Source: Deltaproteobacteria bacterium (GTDB lineage: Bacteria; Desulfobacterota; Desulfobulbia; Desulfobulbales; SURF-16). Taken from it: 36,087 nt of DNA. The notes beneath the pieces were generated by a model. The model saw only the letters and a program-made list of their open reading frames with translations. It was not told the DNA's origin and searched no databases. The position numbers and the translations under genes are program-made. The DNA lies in assembly GCA_016219175.1 (NCBI GenBank), contig JACRCD010000097.1, positions 1 to 36,087 of the forward strand, written 5' to 3'. Shown here piece after piece: positions 8,138 to 33,585 of this stretch (positions are counted from its first letter, which is position 1; every line of letters begins with the position of its first letter).

Positions 8138-9187
8138 ATGCTTTTCAGAGTTTTTAGCAAAAACGAATTGAAAAATCTCTATGACATCCTTGCTGTCAAT
8201 CATATTGTCGGCCCGGTGAGCAAAGGATGTAATAAAAATTCCACCGCACTGTATGATTTTGATTTTGTTTATGATTTTGAAGAGTTGCAGCTTGAATACA
8301 GTGCAACCATTCATTCCCTCAAACGCTTCATTCTTCCTGCCAAAGAAACCTTGTGCTCGTTTACCCTGCAAAAAAATAACTGGCAGAAACATGTCGAACT
8401 GAACGCCTATAAGCCCATTGTCTATTTCGGGCTCCATGCCTGCGATATCAACGCCCTTAACAAACTCGACAAAGTTCTGGCGGGCAAGATCTACCCAGAC
8501 CCCTATTACGCAGCCAAACGCAACAACATGTTTATTATTGGTGTGGGGTGTACCCCGCAGCCCTTCTGTTTCTGTCACTCCATGGGGGCGGATTCCGTTC
8601 TGCACGGGTTTGATATGTTTCTGACCGACCTTGGCGACTCTTATTTTGCTGAAATTCTTTCCGCCCGGGCCTTTGAATGCTTGAGCGGCATCACCTGCAG
8701 GGAACCCGGGAAAAGCGAGCACCAGCGCTTTCTCGAAGTGGCGCAGGAGAAAATGAAGCGTTTTACCTGTCATGTGGACACCACGGACCTGACCAAAATC
8801 CTTGACCTGGAATTTCAAGCCGATGTCTGGAGGGAATGGGGCGAAAAATGCCTTTCCTGCGGAACATGCGCCAACGTCTGCCCCACCTGTTACTGTTACG
8901 GCGTCGAAGAAAATGTCGATCTTGACATGCGTCATGCCGCGAAGACCCGTCACCTTTACTCATGCAATCTGATTGATTTCGCCGAGGTGGCGGGCGGACA
9001 CAACTTCCGCCCGCACAGCCATGACCGCTTGAAATACAGGTATTATCATAAGCATCGCGGTTTTGTGGAGGCTTTTGAGGAATCTCTCTGTGTGGGCTGC
9101 GGCCGCTGCGGCAACGCATGTCTTGCCAATATTACCGTACCGGAGGTGATTGCCAGTGTCCGGGGCAAGGAGGGATACCATGGTTAA
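8138..9187 (+). CDS. hydB: [NiFe] hydrogenase group 3b (sulfhydrogenase-type) beta subunit, 4Fe-4S ferredoxin-like (AsrA-like)
   Basis: Two CxxCxxCxxxCP clusters are present (CLSCGTCANVCPTC; CVGCGRCGNAC). The protein is first in a beta-gamma-delta-alpha gene order identical to Pyrococcus hydBGDA. The ORF-track start at 8129 is TTG. I prefer ATG at 8138, which has GAGGG 9 nt upstream. Confidence 0.8.
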   Translation: MLFRVFSKNELKNLYDILAVNHIVGPVSKGCNKNSTALYDFDFVYDFEELQLEYSATIHSLKRFILPAKETLCSFTLQKNNWQKHVELNAYKPIVYFGLHACDINALNKLDKVLAGKIYPDPYYAAKRNNMFIIGVGCTPQPFCFCHSMGADSVLHGFDMFLTDLGDSYFAEILSARAFECLSGITCREPGKSEHQRFLEVAQEKMKRFTCHVDTTDLTKILDLEFQADVWREWGEKCLSCGTCANVCPTCYCYGVEENVDLDMRHAAKTRHLYSCNLIDFAEVAGGHNFRPHSHDRLKYRYYHKHRGFVEAFEESLCVGCGRCGNACLANITVPEVIASVRGKEGYHG

Positions 9188-10079
9188 ATTGCCCTTTGTT
9201 GATGTCCTGGCCGACAAAAAGAACTATATGCGTAAAGACGATCTGGCCAGTTTCGAATATACCTACCAGGCGGAAATCACCAATGTCTACTCCCTGACAA
9301 AGACGGAAAAACTCTACCAGTTACAGATAATCGACCCTGTGGAGAGAGCCCGCTTCACTTTCAAGCCCGGCCAGTTTGTCATGCTGGAACTGCCGGGGAT
9401 CGGCGAAGCGCCCTTTTCCATTTCCTCTTCGCCGATCAGGCATGGTGATATTGAGCTGTGCATAAGAGCGGTAGGTAATCTCACCAACTTTCTTACCCGC
9501 TCACCCCGCGGTACCAGGGTGGGCATCAGCGGACCTTTCGGCACCGATTTTCCCGTTGAAGAGATGCAGGGCCACGATATCATGCTCATTGCCGGCGGCC
9601 TGGGCCTGGTGCCCCTGCGCGCCCCGATTTTTGCCGTTCTGGAAAACCGCAGCCGTTATGGAAACATTGATATCATTTATGGAGCACGGAACCCGGCGGA
9701 ACTCCTTTTCACCTATCAGTACGACATGTGGCGACAATTTGATATCGATCTCAATATCATTGTCGATCAGGGCGATGCATCGTGGAATGGTCCGGTGGGG
9801 CGCATCACCTCTATTTTGGAGGATCGTATTCAGGCGGCGGAAAACATTGGCAAAAACACCTATGCTATTGTCTGCGGGCCGCCCGTCATGTTCAAATTTG
9901 TCTGCGATATGCTGATTAAGGCCCATTTGCCCACCCAGAAGATCTTCGTGTCCCTGGAGAGGAGAATGCACTGCGGCCGGGGCAAATGCTGCCGGTGCAA
10001 TATCGGCTCCACCTATACCTGCCTGAAGGGACCTGTTTTTGATTACTGGTCCGTGATGAACATGAAAGAGGCCATCTGA
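9180..10079 (+). CDS. hydG: [NiFe] hydrogenase group 3b gamma subunit: FAD/NAD(P)-binding oxidoreductase with a C-terminal [2Fe-2S] (PyrK/AsrB-like)
   Basis: A ferredoxin-NADP-reductase-like fold is evident (RFTFKPGQFVMLELPG; IMLIAGGLGLVPL). The C-terminus has CGRGKCCRCNIGSTYTC. The ORF-track start at 9150 is TTG. ATG at 9180 is preceded by AAGGAGGG and overlaps the hydB stop by 8 nt (ATGGTTAA). Confidence 0.8.
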   Translation: MVKLPFVDVLADKKNYMRKDDLASFEYTYQAEITNVYSLTKTEKLYQLQIIDPVERARFTFKPGQFVMLELPGIGEAPFSISSSPIRHGDIELCIRAVGNLTNFLTRSPRGTRVGISGPFGTDFPVEEMQGHDIMLIAGGLGLVPLRAPIFAVLENRSRYGNIDIIYGARNPAELLFTYQYDMWRQFDIDLNIIVDQGDASWNGPVGRITSILEDRIQAAENIGKNTYAIVCGPPVMFKFVCDMLIKAHLPTQKIFVSLERRMHCGRGKCCRCNIGSTYTCLKGPVFDYWSVMNMKEAI

Positions 10080-10086
10080 AAGCAAC

Positions 10087-10875
10087 ATGACAGCAAGTGA
10101 AAAGACATATCTTGGGGTTCCGGTCAGAAAGCCCAGGGCCGCTTTTTTTTCCTTAACCTCCTGCGAAGGGTGCCAGCTTCAGCTGCTTAACAATGAGGCA
10201 ACCCTGCTTGATTTCCTCTCCTTGCTCACCATTGTCAATTTCCGGGAGGCCGTCAGCGAGCGCAGCGAAAATTACGAAATTGCCTTTGTGGAAGGAAGCA
10301 TCAGCAGGGCTGATGAGATCCCCCGGCTGAAAAGTATCCGCGCCCAGGCTCAGACATTGGTGGCCATGGGCTCCTGCGCCTGTTTTGGTGGAGTAAATCA
10401 GCTCAAGAACCGGTTTTCGGATCTTGACTGGGTGAAAAAACAGGTCTACGGCGATCATCCCATCGAAACCCAGGATGTTTTGCCATTGTCCGCCATTGTC
10501 AAGGTCGACCTCAATATTTACGGCTGCCCCATTAAGAAAGAAGAGGTTGAAAAGGTTATTACCAATCTGGTGCTGGGAAAATCCATTGATTACCCTCAAT
10601 ATCCCGTCTGCATGGAGTGCAAGGCCAATCAGAATGTCTGCCTGTTCGATCTTGGCGAACCCTGCCTGGGGCCGATCACCAGGGCCGGCTGCGATTCATG
10701 GTGCCCCAGTAACCGGCTTGGCTGCTGGGGATGCAGGGGGCCGGCCGAGACCGCCAATGTCAGGCAGCTTAAACAGATCATGCGGGAGCACGGTTTTTCC
10801 GATGAGCAAATGCTGGACCGGCTGGAATGTTTCGGCGGATTCAGCAAATTTATTAATGAGCTGAAAAATCAGTAA
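10087..10875 (+). CDS. hydD: [NiFe] hydrogenase group 3b small (delta) subunit
   Basis: An N-terminal SLTSCEGCQL proximal-cluster motif is followed by further Cys ligands (GSCACFGG, GCPIKKEE, CMECKANQNVC, GCDSWCPS). It sits between hydG and the large subunit. Confidence 0.8.
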   Translation: MTASEKTYLGVPVRKPRAAFFSLTSCEGCQLQLLNNEATLLDFLSLLTIVNFREAVSERSENYEIAFVEGSISRADEIPRLKSIRAQAQTLVAMGSCACFGGVNQLKNRFSDLDWVKKQVYGDHPIETQDVLPLSAIVKVDLNIYGCPIKKEEVEKVITNLVLGKSIDYPQYPVCMECKANQNVCLFDLGEPCLGPITRAGCDSWCPSNRLGCWGCRGPAETANVRQLKQIMREHGFSDEQMLDRLECFGGFSKFINELKNQ

Positions 10876-10908
10876 GGCGCATTTACCCTGGTCAGACAAA
10901 GAGAACCC

Positions 10909-12183
10909 ATGAAAGTTACTTGCAATATCAATGTCCATCATCTTACCCGGGTTGAGGGGCATGGCAATATCCGTATTGTCATCAAAAACGGCCAAGTCGA
11001 AGAGGCCAGCTGGGATGTGGTTGAAACTCCACGTTTTTTCGAAGCCTTGCTGGTTGGCAAACTCTGGGAAAACGCCCCGTATATCTGCGGCAGGATCTGC
11101 GGCATCTGCTCCATCGGGCATACCCTGGCAAGCATCAGGGCCATTGAGAATGGTTTCGGCATCGTGCCGACCGGGCAGACGAGCGCGCTTCGTCTTCTCC
11201 TCAAACATATGGAGACATTGCAGAGCCATATCCTGCACCTTTATTTTCTGGCAGCCCCTGATTTTCTGCGCATCGGCAGCGTGCTGCCCCTGATTGAAAC
11301 CCATCCGGATATCGTACAGAGAGCCACACGCTTGAAACTGCTGGCCAATGACGCCTGTGATGTCATCGGCGGCCGCCGTCTGCATCCAACCAGACCCGTG
11401 GTGGGCGGTTTTACCATGCTGCCGGAAAAATCTCAGCTCGCCCTGCTGAAATCCAGGATCGAGGCGGCTGTGCCGGATCTGGTCAAGACAGCCCAGCTCT
11501 TTCACGGTTTTTCACTACCTGATTTCGTAAGGGAGACCGAGTTTGTTTCACTGCAAGGTAAGGACAATTACCCTTTCATCGGCGGGGATCTGGTTTCAAG
11601 TGATGGAGTGCTCAGGGCGGAAGAGGAGTATCTGCGGATGACCAACGAGTTTGTGGTGGGTCACTCCACCTCTAAATGGAGCCGCCTGTCACGCCACTCT
11701 TTTGCGGCGGGAGCACTGGCCCGGGTAAACAATAATTTTGCCTTCCTTCACCCCAGGGCAAGAGAGATCGCGGAAAGTTTTTCTCTGCGGCCGGTGAACC
11801 ACAACCCGTTTATGAACAATATCGCCCAGCTGGTGGAATGCGTGCATGTTGTCTTCGACAGCATTTCCCTGCTTGACAAGCTGCTAGCAATGGATTGGCA
11901 GGAACCCAGGCAGCAGGTCAGACCAAAGGCGGGTTTGGGAGTGGGGGCTGTGGAGGTCCCTCGGGGCATTCTCTACCATGCCTATGAATTTGATGATTCA
12001 GGACGCATCACCAGAGCCGACTGCGTTATTCCCACCAGCCAGAATAATGCCAATATCCATTATGATATCGCTGAACTGGCCCGCCAGTCAGCTAGCCAGG
12101 GAAAATCAGATAGTGAGATACAGTTGCTGGCCGAGATGCTGGTGCGGGCCTATGATCCGTGCATCTCCTGCTCAGTCCACTGA
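10909..12183 (+). CDS. hydA: [NiFe] hydrogenase group 3b large (alpha) catalytic subunit
   Basis: The N-terminal Ni-Fe ligand motif RICGICSIGH and the C-terminal DPCISCSVH are both present. The ORF stops immediately after the His (TGA at 12181-12183), so there is no C-terminal extension. Confidence 0.9.
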   Translation: MKVTCNINVHHLTRVEGHGNIRIVIKNGQVEEASWDVVETPRFFEALLVGKLWENAPYICGRICGICSIGHTLASIRAIENGFGIVPTGQTSALRLLLKHMETLQSHILHLYFLAAPDFLRIGSVLPLIETHPDIVQRATRLKLLANDACDVIGGRRLHPTRPVVGGFTMLPEKSQLALLKSRIEAAVPDLVKTAQLFHGFSLPDFVRETEFVSLQGKDNYPFIGGDLVSSDGVLRAEEEYLRMTNEFVVGHSTSKWSRLSRHSFAAGALARVNNNFAFLHPRAREIAESFSLRPVNHNPFMNNIAQLVECVHVVFDSISLLDKLLAMDWQEPRQQVRPKAGLGVGAVEVPRGILYHAYEFDDSGRITRADCVIPTSQNNANIHYDIAELARQSASQGKSDSEIQLLAEMLVRAYDPCISCSVH

Positions 12184-15025: not shown

Positions 15026-16378
15026 TCAGCGTATTTTGTTATAGTAATCCTGCAGATCCTTTGCAAGAAATTTTCTGATTCGCCCCAGGTTTCCGCTATG
15101 AGTTCCCCCGAGATCCACCAGGGTTGCCTGGGCCAGCAGCACGCCGACCTTGCCCTCAACCTTGCCCCACAGAGTTTTCTTGTAGTTGCTGTCAAGATTG
15201 ACCAGGCCCGCCTTGCGCGCCTGACATTTTTTTATCAGTCCGGGCAAGCTCCATCGCGTAAACCAGAGCCAGGATAAAAACCAGACCATGGCCACCCCGG
15301 TAAGAGGAAACCACAAGTGGCGGGGGGCGGCGGTTCCGTTCAACAAGGCGCTTATCAGCGTTTCGTCCGGCACCCCGGTAAAGCTTTTGACAATCGGATC
15401 CGTGAGAATAAAGGCAGCCAGCCCGGCAACCAGGGCAAACTTGCCGGCACCTGCCAAAATTGCGCGACCCATGGAGCTGAAAGTGCACATTGCCTCGCAG
15501 ATCAGCAGCAGCTCATTAACCTGGCGGTCAATATCCTGCAGTATATGATTAACCCTGAATCCCGGGGCGGAAAAAATTTTCTTTTTCAACTGCTCCCGTT
15601 CCTCGCGCCAGACAGAAAGGGTTTCAGAGGGTTTGGCCTCGCCCGGCGCATAGGTCACATAGATAGTCGGAATATCCTTTCGGCCCGTCATCTGGGAAAG
15701 ATTCCAGCACAGGGTGCCGTAGGAGCGAACCAGATCGCTCAGGTTATCGCACTCATCGATGCGGCTCATGACAAAAACGATCCTATCCTCGCCGGAGGTA
15801 TCCGGCAGGGTGCTGCGAATGGCGGTGTAGGTCTCGCTGATTGTCCCTGCCTTGTGGGGATCAAACATGAGAACCACCAGGTCGGCAAGCTTGGCAAACT
15901 CCCCGAGCACGGCCAGATAATCATAGCCCCTATCCTTTTCCGTCACGGCATCTAGCATGCCGGGGCTATCTATCAGCGCCATATTTTCCAGAAAAGGAAC
16001 ATCAACTTTTTTTAAGCGGAAATGGCCGATAAACTGTTCGCCGAATGATTTAAAGCGCCCGAAAGGAAGAAAATCGTCATTTACCAGCGTGGAGCCGGGG
16101 ATTTCCATTTCACCATCCTCACGTCCATGGGAGGTGAGAACCGTGAAGGAATCATCGGTGGGCGCCTGCCCGGTGCGTTGGATTTTCTGACCTATAAGTT
16201 CATTGATCAAGGTCGACTTGCCGGAGGAATAATTGCCGATGACAAGCACAATCGGCTTCCACTTCAGTATGGACTCCAGATCAGCGTAGTCCAGACCATA
16301 GCGGTTAAAGAGCGGTAATAATCTATTGCGAACATGAAGCTGAAGTTCTGCCTGCAATTTTTTTTCGTCCATGGGCAT
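15026..16378 (-). CDS. Bacterial dynamin-like GTPase with a C-terminal hydrophobic/membrane region
   Basis: G1 P-loop GNYSSGKST, G3 DSPG and a G4-like SRID are present. The C-terminal third contains hydrophobic segments (FALVAGLAAFILTDPIV; LWFPLTGVAMVWFLSWLWF). ATG at 16376-16378. Confidence 0.75.
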   Translation of the reverse strand: MPMDEKKLQAELQLHVRNRLLPLFNRYGLDYADLESILKWKPIVLVIGNYSSGKSTLINELIGQKIQRTGQAPTDDSFTVLTSHGREDGEMEIPGSTLVNDDFLPFGRFKSFGEQFIGHFRLKKVDVPFLENMALIDSPGMLDAVTEKDRGYDYLAVLGEFAKLADLVVLMFDPHKAGTISETYTAIRSTLPDTSGEDRIVFVMSRIDECDNLSDLVRSYGTLCWNLSQMTGRKDIPTIYVTYAPGEAKPSETLSVWREEREQLKKKIFSAPGFRVNHILQDIDRQVNELLLICEAMCTFSSMGRAILAGAGKFALVAGLAAFILTDPIVKSFTGVPDETLISALLNGTAAPRHLWFPLTGVAMVWFLSWLWFTRWSLPGLIKKCQARKAGLVNLDSNYKKTLWGKVEGKVGVLLAQATLVDLGGTHSGNLGRIRKFLAKDLQDYYNKIR

Positions 16379-16500
16379 TAACGAGAAGCGGCTTATTTTT
16401 TGTATGGCGATAAGGGGAAAGGGATTCCGGAATTTTGACTAATTAACAGATAGCGGAGCAAATTACATTGAAATTTTCAAGAGTCTGGTGAGGTGGAATT

Positions 16501-17133
16501 TTATTGGCCAATAATGATTTGATCAGAAAGCTCATTGATATCATCAGGTTTGACAGGAAATTGGCTGGCCAGAACTTGCCCGACACCCTTGATCTGGTGG
16601 CAGAGAATTTCAGCGGCTCTGCCGGCTTTAACCCCCAAGGCGATATCGCGGGCGTAGGCCTGCAGGGCCTCCTGTTGGATTTTTTCGTAAATTCCCTTGT
16701 CCGCCAAAACCATGACCTTCCGTTCAAAAAGGGAAATAAAAAAAAGAACACCGCTCCTGCCCCGGGTTTTATCTAGACCCTTTTCATAAAACGCGGTGAG
16801 CGCCCTCTGCCGCACCTGCACTTCCAAGCGGACATCGGGGGTAAAAAATCTTTTCACCTGGGGCAGATAATGAACCAGCCACCCGCAAAGAGGCATCAGA
16901 ACAAAAGATATCACCACAAAAAACCACAAAGAATTCTTCCACAACAACTCCGTGGCAACAAGGGCCAGCAGGGCGCCGCAGAAGCAACCGGCCAGTATCT
17001 GCCCCTCGGGATAGGTGTCGCTCTGATCAACGACCATCACCGCCACTTCGCCGGATGTTTTGCACTCCACCTCGGCAATAGCACGGGAGATACTTTCCTG
17101 CTCAGCCGTTGAAAAAAAAGTTTCCGCCTTCAT
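16501..17133 (-). CDS. TPM-domain protein (second TPM gene of the lemA operon) with an internal TM segment
   Basis: The ORF track extends to 17394 through an Arg-rich artefact, which is the antisense of the upstream gene's Gly-rich tail. The real start is ATG at 17131-17133, 2 nt after the upstream TGA. The product begins MKAETFFSTAEQESISRAIAEVECKTSGEVAVMVVDQ (TPM-like), has a TM at LWFFVVISFVLMPLCGWLV, then ...RSGVLFFISLFERKVMVLADKG. Confidence 0.6.
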   Translation of the reverse strand: MKAETFFSTAEQESISRAIAEVECKTSGEVAVMVVDQSDTYPEGQILAGCFCGALLALVATELLWKNSLWFFVVISFVLMPLCGWLVHYLPQVKRFFTPDVRLEVQVRQRALTAFYEKGLDKTRGRSGVLFFISLFERKVMVLADKGIYEKIQQEALQAYARDIALGVKAGRAAEILCHQIKGVGQVLASQFPVKPDDINELSDQIIIGQ

Positions 17134-17135
17134 GA

Positions 17136-18020
17136 TCACCAATCGCCGGAAGCGCCGCCGCCTCCGAACCCTCCTCCGCCAAAACCGCCGAAACCACCGC
17201 CATGCCCGCCGCCGCCATAATACCCCATGCCACCGCCCAGCAAAATGTTGCCCAGCATGAAGGGCAGGAGAAAACCGCCGAAGGCGCCAACAGGAACCAG
17301 AAGCAGCAGCATGAGAAAACTGAAGGGCAACAGGCCGAAAAAAAAGAGTAGCGGAAACAGGATCCCTCCGGCAACCACACCAAGGGGCCGCCAAATTTTA
17401 CCCATGATGGCGACCACGAACATGCCGAAAAAAAGAAACTGCAAAAACGGCGATGACTCCTCCCCGTGCCGTCCCGCTCTTTCCCTCCGGCCCTCTGCCT
17501 TGAATTCTCCCCGGACAGCCTGCAAAATAGCACCAATTCCAGCCTCAAACCCCTCATCAAATCCGTCTTTCTTGAACAATGGCCTGATCACCGTATCGAC
17601 AATGCGTCCGCTCAACAGATCGGTGAGAACAGGCTCAAGCCCGCGGCCCACTTCAATGCGTATCTTTTTGTCGTTTTTGGCGACCAGGAGAAGAACGCCA
17701 TTATCCTTGCCTTGCAGGCCGATCTTCCACTGTTCCACCACTTTGATGCTGAAATCCTCCAGAGGCTCTCCATCCAGTGATGGAATGGTAAGGATTGCCA
17801 CCTGGGTGGAATCGGTAAGGTCAAAGGACTGCAGGGCTCGCTCAAGCTTCACTTCGGCCTGAGAGGAGATCAAATCGGCATAGTCATTGACGTAGCCTTT
17901 ATACGGCGGGATATCCAGGGCTAAGGCCGGACGACAGCCCAGGCGACAGGAAAAAACCGCCAGCACCAGGATGGCGACAGCCAGTCCCCATCCTCCCCTA
18001 TGTTGCGCCCACGCTTTCAA
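17136..18020 (-). CDS. TPM-domain (YgcG-like) membrane protein with a Gly-rich C-terminal tail
   Basis: The signal/TM region is followed by a TPM domain (YVNDYADLIS...VAILTIPSLDGEPLEDFSIKVVEQWKIG...GVLLLVAKNDKKIRIEVGRGLE). Then come TM helices and GGGMGYYGGGGHGGGFGGFGGGGFGGGG. TTG start directly abuts the lemA stop. Confidence 0.7.
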   Translation of the reverse strand: MKAWAQHRGGWGLAVAILVLAVFSCRLGCRPALALDIPPYKGYVNDYADLISSQAEVKLERALQSFDLTDSTQVAILTIPSLDGEPLEDFSIKVVEQWKIGLQGKDNGVLLLVAKNDKKIRIEVGRGLEPVLTDLLSGRIVDTVIRPLFKKDGFDEGFEAGIGAILQAVRGEFKAEGRRERAGRHGEESSPFLQFLFFGMFVVAIMGKIWRPLGVVAGGILFPLLFFFGLLPFSFLMLLLLVPVGAFGGFLLPFMLGNILLGGGMGYYGGGGHGGGFGGFGGGGFGGGGASGDW

Positions 18021-18608
18021 CTAAAATTTGACCTTCGGAGCTGCTTCCGCGCCTGCCTCGGCTTTAAACGGTTCCCGCCGCGGCAATTTCAGCAGAAAAT
18101 TGTTGGTCAGATTGTTCGGAAAGGTACGGATGGAGGTATTGAATACCTTGACCGTTTCGTTGTAGCGCACCCGGGCGACATTGATTCTGTTTTCCGTTCC
18201 TTCCAGCTGGTGCTGAAGGTCTCTGAAATTCTGATTGGCCTTCAGATCGGGATATTGCTCCACAACCACCATGAGGCGGGAAAGCGCTGAACTTAGCCCC
18301 CCCTGGGCCGACTGGAATTGAGCCAGCGCCTCGGGATTGTTGACCACATCGGCGCCGAGCTTCAATTGCCCCACCTTGGCCCTGGCCTCGGTTACTGCCG
18401 TGAGTGTTTCTTTTTCGTGGGCCGCGTAACCTTTTACCACCTCAACCAGATTGGGGATCAGATCCGCCCTTCGCTGATAGGACGCCTCGACATCGCCCCA
18501 GGCGGCAATCACTGCTTCATCATTCTGCTGAATCGTATTATAGCCGCAACCGCTGAGGCTAAGACAAAACAACATCAGTACCGGAAAAATCAACCTTATT
18601 CTTTTCAT
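18021..18608 (-). CDS. lemA: LemA family lipoprotein
   Basis: MKRIRLIFPVLMLFCLSLSGC has a lipobox. The rest reads as LemA-like (AVIAAWGDVEASYQRRADLIPNLVEVVKGYAAHEKETL...). The ATG at 18606-18608 is preferred over the TTG at 18668 shown in the ORF track. Confidence 0.75.
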   Translation of the reverse strand: MKRIRLIFPVLMLFCLSLSGCGYNTIQQNDEAVIAAWGDVEASYQRRADLIPNLVEVVKGYAAHEKETLTAVTEARAKVGQLKLGADVVNNPEALAQFQSAQGGLSSALSRLMVVVEQYPDLKANQNFRDLQHQLEGTENRINVARVRYNETVKVFNTSIRTFPNNLTNNFLLKLPRREPFKAEAGAEAAPKVKF

Positions 18609-18802
18609 AGCCGCCGCTCCCCAAAAATATTTATCAATAACACCAAATAGACTGTAATATTCTAGCAAACATCGCCTTTGTCAACCCCGCCTGCCCCTGT
18701 AATTTATTTATATGAAAGTCGACGGTGCTCGAAAATGACCATGCCGGAGCGCCGGACTTTTATGGTTCGTTGTGGCTGGCCAGCCTGGTCCAGCCATGCT
18801 GG

Positions 18803-28363: not shown

Positions 28364-30424
28364 CTAGCGCGGCACCCCCCGCAGTGGCGACTCAGCACCA
28401 TCCCCACCGCGTTCCCCGCGCCAGAGAGCTGTCTTCCGGCGGGAAATTGTCCCCACGCTCACCTCTTTCGCAGCCCTTTTGCCGTATTCATCCACCGCTA
28501 TGACCCGCAGGGCGGGACCGGAATCCGGAACCGTATAAAAGGATGCCGGCATGGCAAAGGAAATGATGGACCCCTGCTCGTTCATTTTTTTAATCTGCAC
28601 CGGGGTGCCGGAGATTTGCTCCCAGGTAAAATGCAGTTTTTCCCTGTTTTCGTCGGAGGTTGCGCTGGCGTCAATGCATACGGTTTCACCAACAGGGTAA
28701 GCCTTAGCCAGTTCCTTGATGTGTACTTGCGGGGCAAAATTGCCAAGCTTGACCCGCATGGTCAGCTTTCCTCTGCCGGATCTCAATCCCCCGCTCTCAA
28801 AGCGATAGTACAGGACATCGCGTCCCTCAAATGAGGGATCCGGCTGATAGCGGGACTTGCCCGCCTCGATTTTGCTCAGGGTTCCATTTAATTTAGAAGA
28901 ATCGATGTCAACATGAACCTTACTACTGAAAGGGGAATGATTAGCCTCGCGCCAGATACGGCCCCAGTCAATCGTCACATCAGCCGTGCTTTTTGTCTCA
29001 AAGGTCTTATTCTTGGCCCGAACCCCCGGTTTGCTTTGGGCTAATGCCTTTTTCTGCTCATCTTCCTTTATCTTTTCTTTGTCAGCCGCCAGTTTCGCCA
29101 GATCCGGGCCGGTAATGAGCACTTTCGCCACATTGCTGGTATCCTTGCCGTCACTGACCCGAAACTCCAGCTTGTCCTCGCCCGGGAAATCTTTATTCGG
29201 AAGGTAAATGTAGGCCGGCGCCTCACCGGAAAGGCGCCCATGCCCGGGAGGAATAGTCACCTCATAGGTCATTTTGTCACCGTCCCCATCCTGGGCGTCG
29301 AGGGTTAGCGCCACTTCTCCGCCACCTTCGGACATTTTCCAGATACTGTCGCTGGCAACAGGAACATTGTTTTGCGCCACCTCATTCCGCGCCTGTTCCA
29401 CGACTTGGGGCGCCTGTTCGACAACCGGCACGGGGATAGCCTGCTCTGCCTTCTTGCCTGGTTTGAAAAAATAAACCGCCGCGCCAATAACGAGGACGAG
29501 ACAAAGGGATAATCCCGCGGTAACAGCCTTATTGGCAGGGGGAAACCAGGTTCTTTTCGGTTTTTCCTGCTCCACCTCATCAGCTAGGTCAGCCCCTGAA
29601 AAACCGGCTACTGTTGCTTCCCTGGAGGATGTTTTGCTTGAAGAAGCAGCCGCTTTCCCGACTTCCAGGAAATCGTCGCCGCTTTCCAGAACATTGGCAA
29701 GATCGATGTCCTCAACCTCAAAAGGTTCTTCAATATCATCTTCGTCATCAAGCCCGGAAAAAAGCTGATCAATCTCATCCTGATCCACATCCAGACCCTC
29801 TCCGAGTCCGGGCGGCTTCTCCGTCCCTCCGGCCAGCAGGGCATCGATATTATCCTGACTAAAGTCAACCTCTCCCCCGCTTACGTCCTGTTTCTGCCCT
29901 GATCCTCCACTCAAGAGGATGTCAATGTTTGCCTGATCCAGTTCAAGACTTTCCGAGTCCGCCTGTTCTTCAGGTGCGGCCTCGGGGCTTGCGCTCTCTC
30001 CCATGCCGCCCAGCAGGGCATCAATATTGGATTGATCAAGCTCCAGGCTCTCCTCTTCCCGAGCCTCAACCGCAGCCGCCCGCGGCGGAGCTTCACTCTC
30101 CGCCATACCACCCAGCAGGGCATCTATATTGGACTGATCAAGCTCCAGGCTCTCCTCTTCCCGAGCCTCAACCGGTACTGCCCGCGGAGCTTCACTCTCC
30201 GCCATGCCGCCCAGCAGGGCATCTATATTGGACTGATCAAGCTCTGCTGAATCATCATCTCCACCTGAAGCTTCACGCTTTTCCGGCTGAGAATCCGGTA
30301 TCTCCTCGCCGCCCAGCAGGGCATCAATGCTCCCCTGGTCAAGTTCCCCGGAAAACTCGTCAGAGTCATCCAGATCCTCAAGCCAGTTATCGAGATCAGA
30401 GGTCGAATGTTTTTCTTCTGCCAT
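28364..30424 (-). CDS. Single-pass membrane protein. The acidic N-terminal region (~aa 27-245) carries 7-8 tandem L-D-Q-x-N-I-D-A-L-L-G-G repeats (FliM/FliN N-terminal CheY-docking-like). A TM helix follows, then two or three Ig-like (Big/cadherin-like) domains predicted to be periplasmic
   Basis: The repeats are ELDQGSIDALLGG, 3x SLELDQSNIDALLGGM(A/G)ESEAP, ELDQANIDILLSG, DFSQDNIDALLAG, DVDQDEIDQLFSG and a degenerate DIDLANVLESG. The TM helix is VTAGLSLCLVLVIGAAVYFF (~aa 301-320). The C-terminal domains carry the Ig-like signatures EVTIPPGHGRLSGEAPAYIYLPNKDFPGEDKLEFRVSDG and FEGRDVLYYRFESGG. Confidence 0.7.
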   Translation of the reverse strand: MAEEKHSTSDLDNWLEDLDDSDEFSGELDQGSIDALLGGEEIPDSQPEKREASGGDDDSAELDQSNIDALLGGMAESEAPRAVPVEAREEESLELDQSNIDALLGGMAESEAPPRAAAVEAREEESLELDQSNIDALLGGMGESASPEAAPEEQADSESLELDQANIDILLSGGSGQKQDVSGGEVDFSQDNIDALLAGGTEKPPGLGEGLDVDQDEIDQLFSGLDDEDDIEEPFEVEDIDLANVLESGDDFLEVGKAAASSSKTSSREATVAGFSGADLADEVEQEKPKRTWFPPANKAVTAGLSLCLVLVIGAAVYFFKPGKKAEQAIPVPVVEQAPQVVEQARNEVAQNNVPVASDSIWKMSEGGGEVALTLDAQDGDGDKMTYEVTIPPGHGRLSGEAPAYIYLPNKDFPGEDKLEFRVSDGKDTSNVAKVLITGPDLAKLAADKEKIKEDEQKKALAQSKPGVRAKNKTFETKSTADVTIDWGRIWREANHSPFSSKVHVDIDSSKLNGTLSKIEAGKSRYQPDPSFEGRDVLYYRFESGGLRSGRGKLTMRVKLGNFAPQVHIKELAKAYPVGETVCIDASATSDENREKLHFTWEQISGTPVQIKKMNEQGSIISFAMPASFYTVPDSGPALRVIAVDEYGKRAAKEVSVGTISRRKTALWRGERGGDGAESPLRGVPR
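30005..30250. repeat. Near-identical ~100-bp direct tandem DNA repeats (about 2.5 copies) inside the repeat-protein gene
   Basis: The unit gccgcccagcagggcatc(a/t)atattgga(t/c)tgatcaagctccaggctctcctcttcccgagcctcaacc... recurs with only a few substitutions. It encodes the SLELDQSNIDALLGGMAESEAP units. Confidence 0.8.
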
Positions 30425-30438
30425 GATCAGGCCTTTTT

Positions 30439-30987
30439 TCAGTTATTTTTGTAACTTTCCACATAGGAATGTAAAAACCGATAAACAGGTTCGGACATCT
30501 CCACATTGACCACATGCCCACGCCTTGCACCGAGACCATTTCTGCCGCTGATGTGGATGCGCAGGAATCCATCCATCTCTTCAATAACTCCTTCCATTTC
30601 CTGGGGGTAGTTGTTGTCCGCGGAATAGTGCGCCGCCGGTTCACTGTTAATCATGGCGGTCATCTGGTCGGCCAGGGTGATCCCGAGCATGGTTATTTTA
30701 GGAACCCTGCTGTCACTGATCACGGCAAAAGGCGCTACCGCAACCGTGGCCGGCCCGTAGAAATCATGGAAACCCTGGATGGCATCATCACAGATCAGGG
30801 TTACAATCTCAGACAGGTTTGAATAGCGCTGATAACTGATTCGTTCCGCATAATTGCTGTTACCAACCGCATCGTTTCCAGATCCTTCCTGGGCAAAAGC
30901 CGCAGGAACAAGCATACCCGCCAGAAAATGAAAGGATAGAAAGGCTGCGCCCACCCCGGCCAATAAGTTTTTCTGCAAATTTTTCAT
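30439..30987 (-). CDS. Secreted LpoB/FlgO-fold (COG3417-like) protein, paralog 3 of 3
   Basis: Signal peptide MKNLQKNLLAGVGAAFLSFHFLAGMLVPAAFA. The core reads VAVAPFAVISDS...ITMLGITLADQMTAMI...EGVIEEMDGFLRIHISG. A GGGGAG SD precedes the ATG. The stop lies 14 nt upstream of the repeat-protein ATG. Confidence 0.5.
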   Translation of the reverse strand: MKNLQKNLLAGVGAAFLSFHFLAGMLVPAAFAQEGSGNDAVGNSNYAERISYQRYSNLSEIVTLICDDAIQGFHDFYGPATVAVAPFAVISDSRVPKITMLGITLADQMTAMINSEPAAHYSADNNYPQEMEGVIEEMDGFLRIHISGRNGLGARRGHVVNVEMSEPVYRFLHSYVESYKNN

Positions 30988-31937: not shown

Positions 31938-32609
31938 CTACATCTCAAGCCGTTTCATGTAAATCACCCCTGCCGGCTTGTTTCTGGCAGTGGCCGTATC
32001 TTTAAGCATCATGATGCCTAAGTTGTTGAGCGGAAAAACCATTGTGGCGCTGGATAACAACCCACCCCTTTTATTGTCGAGAATGCGGGCGTTCACTATA
32101 ATTTCCTTTTCCCCCACCAGATATGTGCCCGTGAGCATAGCCCCGGACGCCTGGGAAGAAAGAATTTCGGCAGGATCCCGGGACAGGCCGAATTCCCCTC
32201 TCTTCTCCTGCACCATGACACTTAAACTCTTCCGCATATCGAGAACGGGGTAGCCATAACGCTGAAATTCATTCAGCAGCTGTTCAGCCACGTACCGTCC
32301 AAATGACGATGTTCTGTAAAGATTGTTGATATCAACAAGGATGCAAACAACTACCCCGTCAGCCAAATCACCAAGCTGCGGATCAGGTTCCCCAAGATTG
32401 GCCAAAAGCTCTTCCGCAAGGGACTGAACCTTTATCCGCAACTCATCTGCTTCGCTTTTTTTGCCTGCCGCCCCATCGAGAGTTCGTGCGGACGGCTCTA
32501 GATAGGAAGGGGTCCTTCCCTCACCCACAAACTGCCCCGCCAGTCCATACCCAGGCAACGCCTGGAGAAAAAAAACAAAAAAAATCATTATGTTGCGTAA
32601 TAGAGCCAT
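31938..32609 (-). CDS. Secreted LpoB/FlgO-fold (COG3417-like) protein, paralog 1 of 3
   Basis: Signal peptide MALLRNIMIFFVFFLQALPGYGLAG. The core VVVCILVDINNLYRTSSFGRYVAEQLLNEFQRYGYPVLDMRKSL...SGAMLTGTYLVGEKEIIVNARILDNKRGGLLSSATMVF matches the LpoB/FlgO consensus spacing. AAAGGA SD. Confidence 0.55.
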   Translation of the reverse strand: MALLRNIMIFFVFFLQALPGYGLAGQFVGEGRTPSYLEPSARTLDGAAGKKSEADELRIKVQSLAEELLANLGEPDPQLGDLADGVVVCILVDINNLYRTSSFGRYVAEQLLNEFQRYGYPVLDMRKSLSVMVQEKRGEFGLSRDPAEILSSQASGAMLTGTYLVGEKEIIVNARILDNKRGGLLSSATMVFPLNNLGIMMLKDTATARNKPAGVIYMKRLEM

Positions 32610-33084: not shown

Positions 33085-33585
33085 ATGAACAGCAGGGAAG
33101 CATATCTGGAGGAGGAAATATTCATTATTGAGGATTCTGGAGGGGAAATGCCCGAAGTCGCGTTGCACGGCTCCCTTTACTTTCTGAGCAAAGACCCGGA
33201 CGGCCCGGCCCTTGTGCTGAAAAAGCAAGAGATCTTCCCCTTGAAAACAGCGGTGATCAACCGTTATCAGACCATCATTCTCCGCGATCTGCGCCCGGAA
33301 AACCGCAAGAAGAGCATGTACCGGGGGGTGAAAAGAAGCTTTATCAACTGGCGGCGTCTGAAACTTTTTGCCGCGGCGGAAAACATCGACATTACCCACG
33401 TGCGCAACCATGTTTCCACCGCCCTGCTTTCTTTCATAGCCAATGAAATCCGCTCCGTGGCCCAGGCCGGCGAGCCTTCCTGCGTCAACTGCAGCCGCGA
33501 CACACTCCATGAATTTATCTCTGATCTGGGTCTTTGCAGCGAAGATCTTGTCCGCGGCTGGCAGGATCTGTGCTGCGAGGAGTAA
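33085..33585 (+). CDS. Hypothetical protein (166 aa). It may instead start at ATG 33148
   Basis: Open frame with plausible composition. I recognise no motifs. The C-terminus is Cys-containing (CVNCS...LCCEE). Confidence 0.4.
   Translation: MNSREAYLEEEIFIIEDSGGEMPEVALHGSLYFLSKDPDGPALVLKKQEIFPLKTAVINRYQTIILRDLRPENRKKSMYRGVKRSFINWRRLKLFAAAENIDITHVRNHVSTALLSFIANEIRSVAQAGEPSCVNCSRDTLHEFISDLGLCSEDLVRGWQDLCCEE

Follow-up and report, generated by a model that had tools for sequence, protein, structure and literature searches.

A conserved tandem array of FliM_N-like motifs on a single-pass membrane protein of Desulfobulbia and its possible role as a docking platform

The EIDAL peptide of FliM (LSQxEIDALL) binds phospho-CheY (CheY-P); FliN and FliY carry it too, though sporadically. 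Work in Shewanella and B. subtilis has shown that this peptide is both necessary and sufficient for FlhG to bind, and that flagellar number is altered when it is lost. In the literature searched, C-ring proteins with one copy each are the only described bearers of the motif, and no description of tandem or membrane-anchored EIDAL motifs was found. The subject of this report is a gene of Desulfobulbia whose product, a bitopic membrane protein, carries a whole series of such motifs on its N-terminal tail. The gene (hereafter the target) lies in a stretch of 36,087 nucleotides from a Deltaproteobacteria bacterium (GenBank assembly GCA_016219175.1, contig JACRCD010000097.1), which is referred to below as the window.

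Further described systems are relevant to the comparison. According to a 2025 review, HubP helps to localise FlhG, and landmark or confinement factors outside monotrichous gamma-proteobacteria are still to be found. The FlgO of V. cholerae is a lipoprotein of the outer membrane; it assembles into a 58-mer ring that is part of the H-ring in the sheathed flagellar motor of this species. As regards motility, Desulfurivibrio cells are vibrios moving by means of 1-2 thick subpolar flagella.

The tail of the target protein (aa 1-300) has a net charge of -68, with aspartate and glutamate making up 28% of its composition. Seven repeats of the form L-D-Q-x-N-I-D-A-L-L-G-G and two degenerate ones follow each other along it at intervals of about 30 residues (Table 1); they were located by a regular expression on the translation of the open reading frame (ORF) 28364-30424. 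A sequence-only reading of the window had already described an acidic N-terminal region with seven clear repeats and one degenerate repeat, which the scan confirms, adding a half-motif at aa 10-18 (DLDNWLEDL) whose residues D12, W14 and L15 are near-invariant in the family alignments. At the DNA level, repeats 2-4 are underlain by a 102-nt tandem repeat at 29994-30244 (2.5 copies, 90% match), pointing to a recent duplication and expansion of the array. The same tandem repeat also yields a spurious ORF of 165 aa on the opposite strand (29929-30426, +). A relaxed version of the motif pattern, applied to the six frames of the window, had no match beyond the seven sites, and a hidden Markov model (HMM) of the repeat retrieved no non-family ORF at 8 bits among 3,579 background ORFs. 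The array is not a chance occurrence.

The closest known counterpart of the repeat is the N-terminal peptide of FliM and FliY. A repeat profile was built from 76 repeat instances of the family and searched against 177,635 distinct sequences of the PDB, no target being preselected. The top match was Salmonella FliM, residues 4-20, SILSQAEIDALLNGDSD (15.8 bits, E 0.1), the second and third matches being unrelated and weaker. When the N-terminal 298 residues were compared with 18,950 NCBIfam models, motif-level matches were limited to the N-termini of FliY (profile positions 4-46, in three stretches, E 0.0066) and FliM (positions 4-28, E 8.9). Moreover, the repeat HMM scored the full E. coli FliM at 16.6 bits and its first 20 residues alone at 23.9 bits, a value that none of 2000 composition-matched shuffles reached (maximum 11.0 bits). 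Since the real scores exceed those of the shuffles, the likeness to FliM_N proposed in the sequence-only reading stands, as does the 7/10 identity to E. coli FliM LSQAEIDALL counted there, which holds for LDQSNIDALL against the FliM sequence read from NC_000913.3. The individual E-values are modest, and the weight of the likeness therefore lies in the rank of the matches and in their exact position. Among regex-selected instances of the repeat, Q is kept in 100%, I in 97%, D in 99% and L in 99%. These near-invariant residues align with Q8, I11, D12 and L14 of FliM, inside the published LSQXEIDALL core, where D12 forms a salt bridge with K119 of CheY.

FliM and FliY thus have in common with the target the core L-x-Q-x-x-I-D-A-L-L, which in both cases is set in an acidic, disordered and cytoplasmic segment with a short predicted helix. 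However, FliM and FliY are soluble C-ring proteins which have the motif just once, at their very N-terminus, whereas the target holds 7-9 internal copies on a membrane-anchored protein. FliM and FliY carry, in addition, CheC-like and SpoA domains, neither of which was found in the target with Pfam at E up to 1. Membership of the FliM/FliY/FliN family was rejected on this ground, namely the absence of the CheC-like (Pfam FliM) and SpoA (FliMN_C) domains. A weak likeness is seen in the C-terminal peptide of CheZ, which binds CheY; it shares the skeleton S-Q-x-x-V-D-x-L-L with the repeat (E. coli ...ASQDQVDDLLDSLGF).

More than 120 homologs were retrieved by protein search (E down to 1e-212), all of them from Desulfobulbia of the Desulfurivibrio type, and these bear either no name or that of "Ig-like domain-containing protein". 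Scanning GTDB with one genome for each species gave 76 loci, with family members in Desulfurivibrionaceae, Ca. Desulfobia, Hydrosulfovibrio ferrireducens and Desulfurivibrio sp., among others, while homologs from Thiovibrio came from the protein search. The array is kept in all 120 listed homologs apart from one truncated entry, which has a single copy. Full-length homologs carry 3-10 copies with the consensus [ED]-L-D-Q-[SDA]-[ND]-I-D-[AS]-L-[LF]-G-G. The median distance from one repeat start to the next is 30 residues (range 18-119), and the variable linkers in between are rich in A, D, E, G, S and P. Tail length has a median of 297 aa, and the charge amounts to -0.26 per residue. When 97 sequences were aligned, the commonest residue of a column reached an average frequency of 0.78 in the motif cores, compared with 0.41 in the linkers, 0.48 in the transmembrane (TM) helix and 0.57 in the folded periplasmic domains. 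Conserved cores embedded in variable linkers are what is expected of short linear motifs on which purifying selection is strong, set in a disordered tail that evolves freely. The array protein is a real, strongly conserved and previously undescribed feature.

Several lines of evidence favour a cytoplasmic location of the array. A hydropathy scan of the 686 residues gave aa 300-320 as the sole hydrophobic segment. The protein has no signal peptide and 300 residues precede this only TM helix, while all of its operon partners do have signal peptides. Furthermore, the mean content of lysine plus arginine (K+R) across 119 homologs is 2.34 in the N-terminal flank of the helix vs 1.37 in the C-terminal flank. 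On these grounds the protein is predicted to have an N-in/C-out topology, with the tail in the cytoplasm and the Ig-like domains in the periplasm, in agreement with what had been proposed from the sequence alone. In an AlphaFold2 model built from the 97-sequence alignment, the predicted local distance difference test (pLDDT) score of aa 1-297 is below 50 apart from short helices, whose positions are exactly those of the seven motifs; aa 350-665, with pLDDT above 90, are folded into three beta-sandwich domains. Pfam, scanned at E up to 1, recognised Big_9, Cadherin_5 and a PKD-like match in the target and nothing else, and Foldseek with the full model returned generic tandem cadherin/Ig ectodomains only, so that a specific periplasmic function is not readable from the fold. 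Two other short stretches of the protein are conserved: a PF..E..DFAEVL segment between the array and the TM helix (29678-29750, -) and a C-terminal tail, SRRQxALWRG...LPWPY, after the last Ig-like domain (28367-28444, -). Both may be additional interaction motifs.

Table 1. Features of the array gene and of its cassette in the window (nucleotide positions are those of the window)
Feature	Residues	Position	Strand	Basis and remarks
Target gene, whole		28364..30424	-	686-aa bitopic membrane protein; ORF list, homologs of like architecture, AlphaFold model
N-terminal tail, disordered polyanion bearing the array	1-299	29528..30424	-	Charge, pLDDT, K+R bias
Half-motif DLDNWLEDL	10-18	30371..30397	-	Family alignments
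Repeat 1, LDQGSIDALLGG	28-39	30308..30343	-	Motif scan; predicted helix 30-37
Repeat 2, LDQSNIDALLGG	62-73	30206..30241	-	Motif scan; predicted helix 65-70; in 102-nt DNA tandem repeat
Repeat 3, LDQSNIDALLGG	95-106	30107..30142	-	Motif scan; predicted helix 98-104; in 102-nt DNA tandem repeat
Repeat 4, LDQSNIDALLGG	129-140	30005..30040	-	Motif scan; predicted helix 131-137; in 102-nt DNA tandem repeat
Repeat 5, LDQANIDILLSG	162-173	29906..29941	-	Motif scan; predicted helix 167-171
Repeat 6, FSQDNIDALLAG	188-199	29828..29863	-	Motif scan; predicted helix 191-197
Repeat 7, VDQDEIDQLFSG	213-224	29753..29788	-	Conserved last variant of the family; predicted helix 215-222
Degenerate repeat, VEDIDLANVLESG	237-249	29678..29716	-	Within conserved PF..E..DFAEVL segment
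Single repeat as free peptide, ELDQSNIDALLGG				Putative docking unit
Single TM helix	300-320	29465..29527	-	Hydropathy scan; AlphaFold helix 302-319
Periplasmic Ig-like domain 1 (Big_9/Cadherin_5)	352-438	29111..29371	-	Pfam E 2.9e-15; pLDDT >90; cadherin/Ig fold matches
Periplasmic beta-sandwich domain 2	473-560	28745..29008	-	AlphaFold; Foldseek tandem Ig/cadherin; helix 442-460 lies between domain 1 and this domain
Periplasmic PKD-like domain 3	575-660	28445..28702	-	Weak Pfam PKD match at 580-627; AlphaFold; alignment
p182, secreted 182-aa protein, third cassette gene		30439..30987	-	Predicted LpoB-like fold; ends 14 nt before target gene
FlgO-domain protein 2 (FlgO2), 256 aa		31080..31850	-	Pfam FlgO (PF17680) E 5.4e-24; V. 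cholerae FlgO E 0.005
FlgO-domain protein 1 (FlgO1), 223 aa, first cassette gene		31938..32609	-	Pfam FlgO (PF17680) E 2.4e-29; V. cholerae H-ring FlgO (9YDS/9YFG) E 7e-13
DUF7826 protein, 166 aa, without signal peptide		33085..33585	+	Divergent from cassette; Pfam E 2e-49

Among membrane proteins, HubP/FimV invites comparison, as it shares with the target a single membrane passage and a long, very acidic and repetitive cytoplasmic region (-68 over 300 aa in the target). The periplasmic part of HubP is N-terminal, however, so that its orientation is opposite to that of the target, and no EIDAL-like character is known for the HubP repeats. The target was rejected as a member of the HubP/FimV family, no LysM or FimV match being found in Pfam or NCBIfam. 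Thus, the earlier suggestion of a FimV/HubP-like landmark with reversed topology holds for the acidic repeat tail, the single TM helix and the opposite orientation, but not for family membership.

The target closes a cassette of four genes in the order FlgO-FlgO-p182-target. Of 79 related loci, 69-70 show this order, which means all those in which the upstream sequence suffices. The sequence-only reading had placed it last in an operon with proteins of the FlgO/LpoB fold, and these turn out to be two FlgO-domain proteins and an LpoB-like one. The best PDB match of both FlgO1 and FlgO2 is V. cholerae FlgO. As for p182, the best structural match of its model is LpoB, on whose C-domain its alpha/beta fold can be superposed, the Foldseek results being otherwise unspecific. 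Its profile had no match among the PDB sequences and resembled the FlgO profiles weakly (hhalign probability 12-30%). In D. alkaliphilus, at least the p182 gene of the cassette is present. The N-terminus of FlgO1 is an ordinary signal peptide. Several inspected homologs of FlgO2 have a lipobox-like cysteine (..ACA.., ..AGC.., ..TAC..), whereas the window FlgO2 has no cysteine at this site, and its lipidation may therefore have been lost.

Compared with the Vibrio H-ring of FlgO, FlgP and FlgT, the cassette has the FlgO domain in two of its proteins, and some FlgO2 homologs have a lipobox cysteine as Vibrio FlgO does. The H-ring, as described, contains nothing that resembles an inner-membrane partner with a cytoplasmic tail, whereas the target is predicted to be such a protein. 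Neither flgP nor flgT was recognised near the cassette loci, and the cassette lies outside any flagellar cluster. Since the FlgO proteins are not encoded with flagellar genes, they are only putative H-ring members.

In the overall layout of the locus, the cassette is preceded by the DUF7826 gene and followed by rpe-M16-lgt, which are convergent with it. The DUF7826 gene is upstream in 50 of the 79 loci, including those of the most distant family members. Its product has a Cys-rich C-terminus and no match in the PDB or NCBIfam, and it is a possible cytoplasmic partner. A scan for promoters and terminators performed no better than on shuffled sequences.

The same kind of array was also found on other proteins and in other phyla. 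A phmmer search with aa 1-250 of the target against 1.84 billion representative proteins gave 63 matches, about half of which are proteins of other architectures with the same tandem motif. The non-family proteins singled out here come from Hydrogenedentota, Phycisphaerae and Cloacimonadota, and all are unnamed hypothetical proteins. Their arrays comprise 3-23 copies of [LIV]-[SD]-Q-x-[DE]-[IL]-D-A-L-L, and most of the proteins have a single TM helix with tetratricopeptide repeat (TPR) or other domains on its far side. In many of these copies position 2 is Ser, as in FliM. The sequence-only reading had named no described protein as multimerising a CheY-docking-like peptide on a membrane anchor, none being known to it; no such description was found, but the target family is one of several array architectures and not the only one. 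Motif, spacing and acidic linkers are the same in the other array proteins as in the target, the differences residing in the non-array domains (TPR, helix-turn-helix (HTH)-like, possibly FliL-like).

Thus, P0123, P0125, P0130, P0136, P0143, P0159 and P0160 have the array, a TM helix (seen in most) and a C-terminal TPR region which is taken as periplasmic. In P0134, P0150 and P0157, 8-11 copies of [IV]SQSDIDALL are followed by a TM helix and a C-terminal domain of 140 aa, which is possibly FliL-like: that of P0157, the only one of the three with such a match, matched Pfam FliL (PF03748) weakly (E 0.03, profile positions 2-95 of 103), hhalign of the P0134-type domain with E. coli FliL gave P 0.035, no PDB sequence matched the domain, and a homolog search with it as query was empty. 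P0121 is a protein of 1000 aa with 23 copies and no TM helix, while P0137 and P0147 are further hypothetical tandem-array proteins of other phyla. Finally, P0141 has a TM helix, HTH-like repeats and then six copies of the motif. Its array comes after the TM helix, and the protein begins with a signal-like segment, which together indicate that the array is cytoplasmic there too. Arrays are thus predicted to be cytoplasmic in both membrane orientations, N-terminal in the target and C-terminal, after the TM helix, in P0141.

The genomic context of some of these proteins is flagellar. P0134 (locus L089, 8001-9554) is found in the order fliP-fliQ-fliR-flhB-flhA-flhF-flhG-fliA-[P0134]-x-DUF6115-fliK, and P0141 (L090, 8001-11117) in the order flhB-flhA-flhF-flhG-x-fliA-x-[P0141], so that two independent array proteins lie inside flagellar clusters, just after flhF-flhG-fliA. 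P0121 (L082, 5932-11936; 23 repeats) and P0124 (L083, 5947-9977; 10 repeats) each follow an MGMT-like gene and an MptE/Maf-like gene of about 690 aa, the latter with a weak NCBIfam match to the flagellin-modification protein PseD. Other neighbours belong to signalling systems. P0121 is followed by a gene for a c-di-GMP phosphodiesterase with a receiver domain. P0123 and P0130 (L080, 10001-17438, and L081, 10001-15692) are each followed by a protein of about 150 aa and by an orthologous cytoplasmic PAS histidine kinase (47% identity), to which a sigma54-type response regulator is added in L080.

In the reading favoured here, the tail of the target would work as a multivalent capture platform. 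Its 300 residues, predicted to be disordered and cytoplasmic, present seven (+2 degenerate) helix-forming peptides of the EIDAL/FliM_N type, each of which would dock a protein that normally binds the N-terminus of FliM or FliY, the candidates being CheY-P and/or the MinD-like ATPase FlhG. FlhG, which the literature on the peptide suggests, is a second candidate client of the motif, beyond the CheY-P considered in the sequence-only reading. On the other side of the inner membrane, the C-terminal half is predicted to form a rod of three Ig-like domains held by the bitopic anchor. Operon structure and FlgO homology suggest that this rod, the two FlgO-domain proteins and the LpoB-like protein may be joined in a complex of the envelope, situated at the flagellar basal body or close to it, a location that would bring the docking sites beside the C-ring. 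More speculatively, the array could provide a local buffer, sink or antenna for CheY-P, tuning motor switching, or it could retain FlhG at the flagellated site and control flagellar number in this way. A probability of about 0.45 is given to this reading, in which the target docks several FliM_N-binding proteins (CheY-P and/or FlhG) at once on the cytoplasmic side and is tied to a flagellum-associated envelope complex. The flagellar connection is supported indirectly, by the FlgO homology, by the array proteins within flagellar clusters of other lineages and by the motility of Desulfurivibrio.

Several observations weigh against a platform of this kind. The E-values of the motif matches (0.1 and 0.0066) are not significant by themselves, and the family motif departs systematically from FliM_N, position 2 being D where FliM_N has S and position 5 being N/D where it has E, substitutions which could mean a different client. 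The CheZ C-terminal peptide scored only 5.5 bits with the repeat HMM, a value reached by 38 of the 2000 shuffles. No che, fli or flh gene was recognised with Pfam within 10 kb of the target, either in the window or in the 79 related loci. Moreover, the FlgO Pfam domain and the LpoB-like fold are also present outside flagella, and the synteny, coming from one clade, may reflect vertical inheritance as much as functional coupling. The client could be a response regulator unrelated to chemotaxis, or some other protein. The cassette would in that case encode an envelope system without a flagellar role, such as a tether of LpoB/TolB-N-like proteins to the cell wall or outer membrane, which the array would couple to a two-component pathway. 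The departures at positions 2 and 5 and the lack of flagellar genes near the Desulfobulbia cassette agree with such a system, and so do the structural proximity of p182 to LpoB, an activator of peptidoglycan synthase, the orthologous PAS kinase behind P0123 and P0130, in one case with its response regulator, and the receiver-domain phosphodiesterase behind P0121. Nevertheless, no histidine kinase or response regulator is conserved beside the target family in the related loci, FliM and FliY are the only known proteins retrieved by the repeat profile, FlgO1 and FlgO2 are closest to a genuine flagellar ring protein, and two array proteins lie inside flagellar clusters. Such a non-flagellar system with another client is considered rather unlikely, although it is the most probable of the alternatives.

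Two other explanations were considered. The repeats might be "stickers" for self-association or for the binding of membranes or cations, and the acidic tail a condensate or entropic brush like the acidic repeats of polar hub proteins, the resemblance to FliM_N being convergent. A disordered polyanion with amphipathic helices regularly spaced at a median of 30 aa, a copy number free to vary between 3 and 10 and easy expansion through the recent 102-nt duplication would all suit this purpose. However, Q, I, D and L are kept at 97-100% within a core of ten residues, above the level of the folded domains, as would be expected if they met the surface of one specific partner and were not just generally sticky; they coincide, in addition, with the FliM_N core, and the motif recurs within flagellar gene clusters, so that mere stickers appear improbable. 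A reversed topology would place the acidic repeats outside the cytoplasm, where they would bind an envelope or extracellular ligand (cations, surface polymers) as part of an adhesin-like surface protein. Surface adhesins typically have Big_9, cadherin-like and PKD domains, and acidic repeats can bind Ca2+, but this arrangement is very unlikely indeed and was rejected on the absence of a signal peptide, the length of the tail before the only TM helix and the K+R bias towards N-in. It would also require Ig-like domains in the cytoplasm, which would be unusual, and in P0141 the array, following a TM helix and a signal-like segment, is again cytoplasmic.

Apart from the cassette, two other regions of the window deserve mention. 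At 8129-12183 (+), four genes encode a 4Fe-4S protein, an FAD/NAD-binding oxidoreductase and proteins similar to the small (Oxidored_q6) and large subunits of NiFe-hydrogenase, a cluster that looks like a soluble hydrogenase in its layout. At 15026-18668 (-), a dynamin-family GTPase (450 aa) adjoins a LemA-TPM-TPM gene set. The two TPM-domain ORFs as listed (16501-17394 and 17136-18020) overlap by about 260 nt, probably through an over-extended TTG start.

The EIDAL peptide is the point at which chemotaxis signalling, through CheY-P, and the control of flagellar number, through FlhG, meet the motor. What is new here is the presence of this known docking peptide in a multivalent and membrane-anchored setting, and the cross-phylum class of arrays is its most interesting extension. 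Extending the docking platform proposed for the target to this class, it is conceivable, with the odds leaning against it, that EIDAL arrays are a portable cytoplasmic module which in several phyla a single TM helix joins to diverse periplasmic scaffolds, namely the Ig rod with FlgO-like proteins in the target and TPR scaffolds or possibly FliL-like domains elsewhere. Such a module could arrange tens to hundreds of CheY-P/FlhG sites in a ring or patch around the motor and, by serving as a landmark for FlhG or as an antenna or sink for CheY-P, would regulate flagellar number or the sensitivity of switching at a level not recognised before. Desulfurivibrio alkaliphilus is a cultured and sequenced organism suited to direct tests, and the arrays in the flagellar operons of other phyla are independent cases. 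If the platform exists, 3-10 membrane-anchored copies of the peptide beside the basal body would change the models of local CheY-P, motor sensitivity and FlhG retention, and the target would become a candidate landmark or confinement factor outside the monotrichous gamma-proteobacteria.

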